Of a DNA stretch of 64,000 nucleotides, positions 52,351-61,472 are shown in pieces. A model generated the notes under the pieces. The model was not told where the DNA came from. It was given only the letters and a program-made list of their open reading frames with translations, and ran no database searches. Numbering within the stretch: position 1 is the stretch's first letter; every line of letters starts with the position of its first letter. The DNA comes from an uncultured delta proteobacterium (GTDB lineage: Bacteria > Desulfobacterota > Desulfobacteria > Desulfobacterales > JAFDCJ01), in contig CAVYNY010000001.1 in assembly GCA_963769935.1 (NCBI GenBank), forward strand, positions 102,471-166,470, in the 5' to 3' direction. The translations under genes and the position numbers were made by a program.

Positions 52351-52812
52351 ATGGAAAAAAACCACATCAAAATAATTGCTGTGAACCGCAAAGCCCGGCA
52401 CGACTTTTTTATCGATGATGAGTATGAGGCCGGAGTGGTCCTGCAGGGGACCGAGGTAAAATCCCTTAGACTCGGCAAGGTCAATTTAAAGGATTCCTAT
52501 GCCAGGATTAAAGACGGCGAGGTGTTCGTTTACCAGTTGCATATCGGCCCCTACCCTTTTGCCTACTATGGAAATCACGATCCGTTGCGAGCCCGCAAGC
52601 TTCTCCTGCACAAACAGGAAATTAAACGCATATATGCCAAGGTGAACGAAAAGGGCCACACCCTGGTGCCTCTCAAACTCTATTTTAAGGGCGGCAAGGT
52701 TAAAATTTCCCTGGCACTGGCCAAAGGCAAGCGTCAATACGACAAGCGCGAGTCCATCAAGCGCCGCGATGAGAAAAGAGACCTTGATCGCGCCCGCAAG
52801 CAATATATGTAA
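52351..52812 (+). CDS. smpB: SsrA-binding protein
   Basis: NRKARHD, EAG..LQGTEVKS, RKLLLHK and GKRQYDKR motifs. Confidence 0.97.
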   Translation: MEKNHIKIIAVNRKARHDFFIDDEYEAGVVLQGTEVKSLRLGKVNLKDSYARIKDGEVFVYQLHIGPYPFAYYGNHDPLRARKLLLHKQEIKRIYAKVNEKGHTLVPLKLYFKGGKVKISLALAKGKRQYDKRESIKRRDEKRDLDRARKQYM

Positions 52813-56276: not shown

Positions 56277-56632
56277 GGGGGCGAAACGGATTCGACGGGG
56301 ACAAAGAAGCTTTGGCTGCATACCGAGCTTTCCTGTCTGCTCGTTAAACGACGGGAACTTAAACATAATCGCAGATGATTATGCATATGCTCTGGCCGCA
56401 TAAATAGGCCAGCGCCCTGTCAGGTTAATCCTGCGGACCTGATAAGGACGTCGACTAGCGGGATAGCCATCCCGGCTGCCTGTGACGGGAAGGGCGAAAC
56501 TTAAGCGGGCTGGCCGTTTAAAAATCCTGCCTGAAGGAGTTTTAAACGGTAAGATTCAAATTTCAGGCTAAGTATGTAGATGCCCGAGTGGAATGTTTGC
56601 GGACGCGGGTTCAACTCCCGCCGCCTCCACCA
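56277..56632 (+). ncRNA. ssrA: tmRNA
   Basis: 5' GGGGGCGAAACGGATTCGAC; 3' GCGGGTTCAACTCCCGCCGCCTCCACCA; tag ORF ADDYAYALAA* at 56371-56403. Confidence 0.97.
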
Positions 56633-56795
56633 GTCTTCGTTCGAAACGCAGTGCAGAACGAAGACTGTCACGGCGTAGCCTTCAGGCGAAGCCGGACTCA
56701 CTATCAATACCTATCCGTTTGCGTTTCGAACTACGCCTTGGCAAGCCGATATAAACACAGTCTTCGTTCGAAACGCAGTGCAGAACGAAGACTGT
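56631..56795 (+). repeat. Two identical 38-nt hairpins with a structured spacer
   Basis: CAGTCTTCGTTC-GAAACGCAGTGCA-GAACGAAGACTG-T at 56631-56668 and 56758-56795. Confidence 0.9.
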
Positions 56796-56805
56796 AAGTG
56801 ACAAT

Positions 56806-57257
56806 ATGAAAGGCTTCCACTATGTTTACATCCTTGTCAGCCCAGCCGCCGGCCAAAACAACGGCCGGTCTGATCATAAAAGAAACTTTTGGAAATCGGA
56901 CACAGTTGGATTTAATATCACGCCCACTTCGTTAGAGCTCACAGAGACCGCAGAGAACATTTTTCTTTCGCCGCAGGCGCCTGTAAACCCAGACCTCTGT
57001 GATCTCCGAGCGCTCTGTGTGAGATGTAGTTTCATATGAGTGAACAGGATGAAACGCGTCACTATACCGGTCTCACCGAAAATTTGCAAGATCGCCTTAA
57101 AGCCCACAACGCCGGTCAAGTATCCCATACATCCAAATTCCGACCGTGGCGAATCGAAACGGCAATCGCCTTTCGGTCCAAGGAAAAAGCTTCCGAATTC
57201 GAAAGATACCTAAAGTCTCACGCCGGCAGAGCTTTTGCGAACAAAAGGCTCTGGTGA
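56806..57257 (+). pseudogene. Small GIY-YIG nuclease (UPF0213/YhbQ-like) split by a 200-bp insertion
   Basis: Removing 56841-57040 gives 83 aa: MKGFHYVYILVSEQDETRHYTGLTENLQDRLKAHN...FERYLKS... Confidence 0.88.
56841..57040 (+). mobile_element. Family A GTCAG-targeted element with about 140-nt cargo
   Basis: Same ends as 31636-31803; precise removal restores the host ORF. Confidence 0.88.
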
Positions 57258-57441
57258 ATTCAGTCACCTTTGAGTTGCATGCGAAGTGTTCAAACCGAAC
57301 TCGACCTTAAAGTCAGTTGCCTTTACCACCGGCTTAACCGTTCGCTCCTGCTTAAGTGAAGCTCCGCCCGCAGAGCGGGAGGCCTCAGGAAGCCCCCTGC
57401 AAGGGGGCTGGATTAAGCGCTTATCAATTTAATTCCGAAAC

Positions 57442-57542
57442 CCCTGGCCCAGACCGTTTGGGCATAGGTTTTTGTTTAAAATATCGGATGATCAAACGCC
57501 CCGGCCGTGCATCTGAACCTAATAAGTCGCGCCAGGGCGGGC
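57442..57542 (+). mobile_element. Family B 101-bp fixed-end element, copy 3
   Basis: CCCTGGCCCAGACCG...TCGCGCCAGGGCGGGC inside a CGAAA-type heptamer array. Confidence 0.75.
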
Positions 57543-57549
57543 CGAAGCA

Positions 57550-57827
57550 CGAAATACGAAACAAATTCAAATGTCTAAAAATCCCGCTGGCAGAAAACCA
57601 AACTCAAAATGTGTTAAAAAAATTATGGGACGCGGATCTTCACAGATTTTCACAGATAAAATATTTCAGGTCCGCCTGGCGGCGGAAGCTGCAGTGCAGC
57701 ATCGTCTGCGGGAAGAAATTAGACTTTTTTTCTCGCCCAAGGCGATGGGGTTCATTGGTTTTTGAATCTGTGTGCATCTGTGAAAATCTGCGTCCAACAT
57801 TTCGTATTTGTTTCGAATTTGGAATTT
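57550..57827. repeat. Nested palindromic repeat element
   Basis: Outer CGAAA-type arms; inner GGACGCGGAT..CACAGAT (57628-57657) mirrored by ATCTGTG..ATCTGCGTCC (57766-57795). Confidence 0.8.
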
Positions 57828-61166: not shown

Positions 61167-61472
61167 TTACTTTAAAAATTTCTTTCTACGGACAATAGCG
61201 AGGCCACCAATACCGAGACCAAATAGAAGAAGGGTTGCGGGTTCTGGGACCGCAATTGGCTGGACAGTCTCTCTGTCAGACATGGTATAACCATTTCCAG
61301 CCCTTTGGATAGCCGCTTTTGGCGCGGGATGATTACTTCCAGCACCACCGCCTCCTGATAAAGCATAGGCATTTCCAGTCGGAGTAAAGTCAAGTGCAAA
61401 GGGTGCCAATAAAAAGGTGAGGCTTAGCGCCAGACAAAATAGAATTTTTAACTTAGAACCTTTCATCTTCAA
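61167..61472 (-). CDS. Small PEP-CTERM protein
   Basis: Signal peptide; VPEPATLLLFGLGIGGLAIVRRKK. Confidence 0.9.
   Translation of the reverse strand: MKMKGSKLKILFCLALSLTFLLAPFALDFTPTGNAYALSGGGGAGSNHPAPKAAIQRAGNGYTMSDRETVQPIAVPEPATLLLFGLGIGGLAIVRRKKFLK

Follow-up and report, generated by a model that had tools for sequence, protein, structure and literature searches.

SsnA is a single-domain GIY-YIG nuclease that cuts single-stranded DNA (ssDNA) 5' of its own hairpin, and in the available part of Chenal et al. 2025 (PMC11893778) the NTS-ssnA-NTS arrangement is likened to an insertion sequence. The Ssn family (cd10448) with its NTS/SRM motif resembles the element described here in that a small single-domain GIY-YIG gene is tied to its own directional, genome-dispersed hairpin repeat with a non-palindromic 5' tag (PMC11893778, same part). 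REP/REPIN repeats and the RAYT enzymes (Y1 HUH) offer a second likeness: according to the accessible text of Di Nocera et al. 2013 (PMC3733652), their short tagged palindromes occur as singlets, inverted dimers and nested clusters, as the hairpins of our element do. A third is phage T4 SegB, likewise a GIY-YIG gene beside tRNA genes with selfish spread and no integrase; SegB has a 27-bp cleavage site in double-stranded DNA (dsDNA) and spreads by homing among related phages (available sections of PMC2330249). The Slx1-like standalone GIY-YIG proteins (UPF0213) share the minimal domain, and include the closest solved relatives by sequence and fold (1zg2 and Slx1); they are predicted repair enzymes, and the part of their description at hand (PMC1564403) mentions no link to tRNA ends or hairpin repeats. 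We found no description of a tRNA-end GIY-YIG hairpin element in the literature searched, a search that had most subscription journals outside its scope.

The locus studied here lies in the window, by which we mean the whole 64,000-nucleotide stretch analysed, from the 8-Mb genome (G000) of an uncultured delta proteobacterium. It is a dead copy of a widespread and likely selfish element, which consists of two inverted hairpin units and an 83-aa GIY-YIG gene and sits at tRNA and tmRNA 3' ends. Its parts, in window coordinates, are as follows.

56277..56632, plus strand: tmRNA gene, the host anchor, with its encoded CCA end at 56630-56632 (ARAGORN; Rfam RF00023, 196 bits).
56630..56745, minus strand: unit 1, the outer hairpin unit, a predicted minus-strand fold; it has a CTTG tag (56742-56745), core sequences at 56731-56735 and 56635-56639, an upper stem in which 56720-56730 pairs with 56640-56650, and a lower stem that the complement of the tmRNA CCA closes.
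56631..56667, plus strand: P1 hairpin with a 12-bp stem, first copy of a 38-nt repeat; an alternative fold that joins the head of unit 1 to the 5' flank of unit 2.
56664..56697, plus strand: unit 2, the inner, inverted hairpin unit, with an ACTG tag, a lower stem that contains a bulge, a CGTAG/CGAAG core that holds two G·A mismatches, and a short upper stem-loop.
56720..56731, plus strand: anti-arm; its sequence complements the arm and loop of P1, and it also makes up the 3' side of the unit 1 upper stem.
56758..56795, plus strand: second 38-nt copy, an incidental partial re-copy of P1 that ends 1 base past the unit 2 tag.
56806..56840, plus strand: 5' part of the GIY-YIG gene, 35 nt, with the YVY strand.
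56841..57040, no strand assigned: 200-bp dispersed genomic repeat (family A of the initial annotation), inserted at AG.
57041..57257, plus strand: 3' part of the GIY-YIG gene (PF01541, E 1.6e-11).

The initial annotation, made from the sequence of the window, had described a 38-nt hairpin on the tmRNA CCA that recurs just ahead of a broken nuclease gene, and these observations hold. The repeat is identical at 56631-56668 and 56758-56795, the copies are 127 nt apart and have a perfect 12-bp stem, and the second stops 10 nt short of the nuclease ATG (56806); the motifs placed in the spacer are found at 56671-56694 and 56720-56731. The repeat folds better than 200 of 200 shuffles (DNA z -4.1), and perfect 38-mers recurring within 200 nt number only 19 in the whole genome. 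Contigs from two other DNA runs, one of which could be the source sample, run into the second copy from the first one or from the tmRNA, so the duplication is not an assembly artefact. The two parts of the gene sum to 252 nt, that is, 83 codons and a stop, and the 200-bp repeat that splits them is flanked by AG on both sides; the empty site found in the congener G022 places the junction at the duplicated AG. The window copy of the protein, whose first strand is lost to the insertion, is very likely inactive. Elsewhere in the window, smpB (52351-52812) lies 3.5 kb upstream of the tmRNA gene on the same strand, more dispersed repeats (57354-57560) start about 100 nt past the nuclease stop codon, and a small ORF at 61167-61472 on the minus strand ends in what we take to be a PEP-CTERM-like tail.

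An intact 83-aa paralogue (G000:C22:129194-129442, minus strand) sits directly behind tRNA-Pro(TGG) on contig C22 of the same genome, with the same leader except that the hairpin is present once, and all protein analyses are based on this C22 protein. The nuclease is a lone 83-aa GIY-YIG domain that matches PF01541 above the cut-off. Y21, R31, H35 and E67, which we take to be the catalytic Tyr, Arg, His and Glu of GIY-YIG, are invariant in 49 proteins. The model of the C22 protein reaches a pLDDT of 94.9, and the top Foldseek rows are 1zg2 and Slx1 (E 0.002-0.012, none at E≤0.001), with UvrC and I-TevI at E of about 1; as modelled, the fold is closer to Slx1/UPF0213 than to UvrC/I-TevI. Among 50%-identity representatives the C22 protein has 4499 relatives at E≤0.001, and 1018 clusters match the query at E≤1e-10, some of which may lie outside the element's clade. 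None of the four proteins searched matched an NCBIfam family.

No SRM/NTS motif occurs within 500 bp of any of 80 loci, nor is there one in the window. Two NTS-flanked proteins from viral contigs, which stand in for SsnA in the clade comparison, share 35-38% identity with the element's protein over 37-66 residues (E 9e-6 and 6e-8), and a rough 81-column tree sets the element's clade apart both from these proxies and from a sister clade (99/95). Our element also differs from Ssn in its hairpin, which contains a G·A core, occurs as inverted doublets ahead of the gene and sits at tRNA ends; the word 'tRNA' is absent from the main text of the Ssn paper (PMC11893778).

The position behind a tRNA-like 3' end, from which the initial annotation had proposed an element that homes to such ends, recurs in most of the homologue loci examined. 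We scanned genomes (464 relatives, the best 80 analysed) and metagenomes (the best 80 of 553); the two sets of loci lean to close relatives, overlap in part and include kin. A tRNA-type 3' end followed by the core within 15 nt was present in 62 of the best 80 of 464 genome loci, four of them loose matches (L020, L054, L082 and L083), and a tRNA-type end directly precedes the core in 53 of the best 80 of 553 metagenome loci; control windows gave 0/70 and 1/60. The misses in the genome set comprise eight loci with less than 300 nt upstream, eight without a tRNA-type end and two with an end and no core, and those in the metagenome set twelve with a short upstream region and fifteen without a tRNA-type end. 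At least nine RNA types serve as anchors: tmRNA and the tRNAs for Ala, Pro, Val, Met, Cys, Lys, Leu and Ser. The core starts 5 nt past the discriminator, mostly as CCA plus 2 nt, in 45 genome and 41 metagenome loci, and 2 nt past it, with no encoded CCA tail, in 9 and 12; in most of the latter the CCA is formed by positions 71-73. In L337, where the tRNA-Ser end is CCG, the P1 arm is altered to match. A sister GIY-YIG clade (L126, L128, L132, L135, L136 and L139) lies 44-58 nt behind tRNA 3' ends with no hairpin leader, so tRNA adjacency does not need the hairpins; in genome G007 the sister-clade gene stands in tandem with repeated tRNA 3' parts.

Further copies in G000 and its congeners vary in completeness. 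Contig C20 carries a gene-less 28-nt unit behind tRNA-Glu: there, the end reads CCA, 28-nt unit, second CCA in G000 and G018, and both the unit and the second CCA are missing in G022. As this empty site comes from a species only about 74% identical, the junction is not exact. A tmRNA-type end is followed by such a leader in eight congener genomes, each leader being different, lacks it in four and has another palindrome array in one; in L087 of congener G008, the tmRNA CCA is followed by a different palindrome array with GIY-YIG fragments. In G022 the window's nuclease gene has a frameshifted counterpart with a single hairpin ahead of it. G000:C35:6390-6785 (L002) holds two tandem remnants of the nuclease clade, both decayed and without an upstream tRNA or leader. 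Just past a DnaK-like gene (G000:C10:397469-397496), the tmRNA 3' end recurs as an exact 28-nt copy, which forms a terminator-like hairpin and is possibly an att remnant. ARAGORN also called tRNA-Pyl and tRNA-SeC in G000, at C11:285724-285797 and C3:6328-6425.

The leader between the RNA gene and the nuclease gene consists of two inverted copies of one unit, nested or in series: unit 2 lies inside the loop of unit 1 in the window, and unit 1 precedes unit 2 in 11 other loci. Each unit is built from a CYTG-type tag, a lower stem in which one base is bulged, a CGWAG/CGAAG core containing two G·A mismatches, and an upper stem-loop that varies. The pairing of the hairpin with a distant antiloop, expected from the window to covary if real, does so. 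Across 28 distinct arm pairs from 45 loci (six loci without the core were dropped), 188 of 224 long-range arm pairs are Watson-Crick, against a fraction of 0.52 in 5000 shuffles, and in the second, metagenome set the count is 123/168 against 0.545. We aligned the window with 59 of 65 nested leaders (L026, L037, L082, L280, L338 and L347 were left out). P1 and unit 2 are 95.1% paired on these 60 leaders, with two-sided changes in 15 of 22 pairs, and unit 1 is 89.1% paired, with two-sided changes in 14 of 16, the leaders having been selected for both cores and kinship inflating the covariation counts; slid controls of the alignment are 25-46% paired. Hence both P1 and the alternative fold that the 12-nt motif at 56720-56731 makes with the hairpin arm, as suggested initially, covary, and since the 5' arm is common to both, P1 and unit 1 are alternatives. 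Two GNA mini-hairpins that had been read into the spacer fared worse: their outer pairs are kept in only 27/47 and 21/47 leaders, the enclosing stem covaries, and 56671-56694 folds as one hairpin with G·A mismatches. Mimicry of a T-loop by the P1 arm was also considered; a second T-arm-like match is limited to leaders with the Desulfobacterales-type arm, so it is no family trait.

Mismatches suggest the strand on which each unit folds. On the top strand, the unit 2 core has G·A in 50/60 and A·G in 59/60 leaders, and the unit 1 core has C·T and T·C in 60/60 each, equivalent to G·A on the bottom strand. At the unit 1 pair in which the A of CCA takes part, 34 leaders have A-T and 21 have A·C, equivalent to G·T on the bottom strand, and the upper stem of unit 1 has the same bias (A·C 8, G·T 2). 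With one unit on each strand, and one of the two antisense to the tRNA, the arrangement points to DNA; against this, unit 1 did not come out as the best fold when the minus strand was folded with standard DNA parameters.

The leader could instead act at the RNA level: co-transcribed with the tRNA or tmRNA, it would alternate between P1 and the long-range fold, thereby controlling 3' processing or translation of the nuclease, and would spread by an RNA or tRNA-primed step. The covariation of two mutually exclusive folds speaks for this, as does the constant sense orientation of the leader behind a stable-RNA gene. In P1, G·T (G·U in RNA) is favoured over A·C on the transcribed strand by 11 to 3, and RNA folding gives a z of -3.7 for the plus strand against -0.6 for the minus strand; both fit an RNA role. 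However, the G·A and G·T pattern of unit 1 fits the antisense strand only, and the 21 loci that join at the discriminator base without a CCA tail have a junction that mature-tRNA priming would not be expected to leave. SsnA, moreover, is inactive on RNA according to the part of PMC11893778 at hand, and no Rfam family except tmRNA reaches its gathering score. We regard an RNA-level element as quite improbable. In two RNA runs, depth drops past the tmRNA CCA, in contigs that cannot show ends and have the tmRNAs of other organisms mixed in. A terminator role of the leader hairpins was discarded, there being no terminator-like site at them.

The units are not confined to leaders. A search of G000 gave 140 hairpin candidates, 51 of them CTTG-tagged and 14 CCTG-tagged, and three shuffles of the genome contained 0, 0 and 0 CTTG-tagged hairpins. 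The unit pattern has 62 matches in G000 against one for the reversed pattern and is present in 25 of 41 genomes, which bears out the earlier suggestion that cognate hairpin repeats exist elsewhere in this genome. Of the 62 singlets, 23 lie within long copies of the repeat that also interrupts the window's gene; carried inside one repeat family, they are not independent insertions. This 200-bp repeat has 28 full-length copies among 124 BLAST matches in G000, and the window's version lacks a 35-nt hairpin singlet that is found in 23 other copies. The short copies, the window's included, provide the exact unfilled site of a 35-nt insertion that produced no target duplication, which recalls REP/REPIN. 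The 35-nt singlet is present or absent in both subtypes of the repeat, and the repeat itself ends at AG and is often embedded in 7-base tandem repeats. Other singlets begin at CTTG or CTCG within other leaders and within each other, often before AG. Nested singlets and short tandem clusters occur, for example, at G000:C11:467257, C16:6721-6866 and C32:173333.

Beyond G000, the singlets and the nuclease co-occur cleanly among 18 genomes of the same order outside the genus: the three with at least four singlet matches all have a close nuclease (3/3), and the remaining 15 have none at E<1e-20 (0/15). Co-occurrence is weak within the genus and across 150 genomes of the phylum: in three other phylum genomes with at least five singlet matches the nuclease is close in one, distant in one and absent in one, and two phylum genomes with a close nuclease have no singlet match. 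Genome G015, 87% complete, has 63 singlet matches and no nuclease match.

Genomes in which singlets are present and the nuclease goes undetected would be expected if a Y1/RAYT transposase acting in trans moved the hairpins as a REP family, or if integrative islands at tRNA ends carried them, with the nuclease gene as a hitchhiker. G000 has 11 Y1_Tnp matches, and the core contains GTAG, the tag of RAYT-linked REPs (accessible text of PMC3733652). The intact element on C22 also lies within a 2.3-kb islet (G000:C22:127259-129641; L001, L395) that runs from tRNA-Pro through the element and a gene for a 348-aa NTP_transf_8 nucleotidyltransferase to a 60-nt duplicate of the tRNA-Pro 3' part, and the element may be ferried by islands such as this one. 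Against a passenger role, the singlet nearest to any Y1 gene is 4.6 kb away, no Y1 gene is flanked by the repeats, and the leader precedes the nuclease in most loci. The position of GTAG is variable (T-A in 37/60). Unlike integrase-driven tRNA or tmRNA islands, neither the window's contig (C1), which ends 7.4 kb after the tmRNA, nor C22 has a match to the tyrosine integrase family PF00589, in agreement with the lack of a nearby integrase remarked on in the initial annotation. An exact duplicate of the tRNA 3' 12-mer downstream, within the fetched flanks, was found in 0/52 loci; tRNA 3' duplicates do occur at C22 (60 nt, 2.2 kb on) and, in inexact form, at L004 and L008. That the nuclease gene merely rides along is, in our judgement, very unlikely.

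Several further features set the hairpin apart from REP/RAYT: the linked gene encodes a GIY-YIG rather than an HUH enzyme, the CYTG tag is placed 6 nt outside the GTAG-like core, and the account of the GTAG/CGTC families, in its accessible part, holds no tRNA-end anchoring (PMC3733652). The core words are absent from four supplements of that paper. The singlet may be identical to one of the 24 GTAG consensus sequences, for instance GTAG-14, which according to the same partly available source occurs in Desulfatibacillum. Overall, the element works like Ssn/NTS and REP/RAYT, but it has no SRM, stands outside the clade of the two Ssn proxies and has no Y1 gene flanked by its repeats.

The element has a sharp 5' boundary and a ragged 3' boundary. 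Likeness of the window's gene to that of G022 ends near the stop codon, and the downstream flanks have no homology. Within 400 nt past the stop, 19 of 60 loci carry a partial re-copy of their own leader (15 of them within 25 nt), against 0/50 controls, and some of these re-copies are joined by short shared sequence. The duplicated hairpin, taken at first for a defining part of the element, is not one: the C22 paralogue and G022 have a single copy, and an extra P1 copy occurs in only 13 of 75 loci. The second 38-nt copy in the window is one of these incidental partial re-copies, and the 127-nt difference between G000 and G022 fits a gain in the former as well as a loss in the latter. A fixed break right after the unit 2 tag was likewise rejected; of 16 extra copies, 11 run into the inner hairpin and five stop 5-12 nt after the start of the tag, and such mixed end points mean that there is no sharp break site.

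A sharp 5' and a ragged 3' end are also what homing in the manner of SegB would leave, by a dsDNA cut at empty tRNA or tmRNA gene ends and copying of the cassette by one-sided recombination from the tRNA homology, the hairpins merely marking or protecting filled sites. The homing endonuclease SegB of T4, itself of the GIY-YIG type, recognises a motif in the tRNA T-loop (PMC2330249, available sections), and the patchy presence of the element, the differing leaders among congeners and the independent decay in G000 and G022 agree with homing. However, at least nine different RNA genes are used, the downstream flanks, that of G022 included, share no homology, and gene-less singlets lie far from tRNAs. 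Seg enzymes have a two-part layout, a catalytic domain and a separate DNA-binding region. The element's nuclease differs in being a lone domain, with no separate DNA-binding region in either the sequence or the model of the 83-aa protein, and also in its hairpin leader, which covaries, and in the gene-less units present at many targets. On balance, SegB-like homing seems unlikely.

We favour, with a probability of roughly 60%, a reading in which the substrate of the nuclease is the unit in its folded, single-stranded DNA form. The enzyme would nick it next to the tag, and singlets, doublets or the entire cassette would then be copied by host repair that switches templates. Each unit would fold on the DNA strand that carries the G·A core, giving one substrate per strand, and the complement of the terminal CCA would finish the lower stem of unit 1 and so set the junction. 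By analogy with SsnA, which cuts 5' of its own hairpin, the cut is predicted to fall beside the tag. A GIY-YIG nuclease hydrolyses and does not join, so the joining step would rest on host repair: repair synthesis with template switching could insert singlets, doublets or the whole cassette, and could also leave partial re-copies such as the 38-nt one. The nuclease gene would be expressed by read-through from the tRNA or tmRNA promoter, and in G000 the C22 copy could supply the enzyme in trans.

A bolder version of this reading, which we put forward tentatively and hold to be somewhat doubtful, is that the element represents a class of minimal mobile elements without transposase, integrase or reverse transcriptase. 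Its 83-aa nuclease would recognise an ssDNA hairpin with G·A mismatches, pairing with the CCA at the end of any tRNA or tmRNA gene would select the landing site, and all joining would be left to host repair; the element would be the autonomous driver of an uncatalogued REP-like family across many phyla.

The comparative sequence support for a real and widespread element is strong. If the nuclease does move the hairpins, it would be a second enzyme fold, besides RAYT, that generates REP-like repeats, and the origin and spread of short palindromic repeats would become directly testable. The system is small, with an intact 83-aa gene and a 30-35-nt candidate substrate in one genome, and the natural insertions predict the strand and the cut position for that substrate. 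If true, many small hypothetical GIY-YIG genes would also gain a function outside repair, and Ssn would be joined by a new specificity of site-specific ssDNA nuclease.
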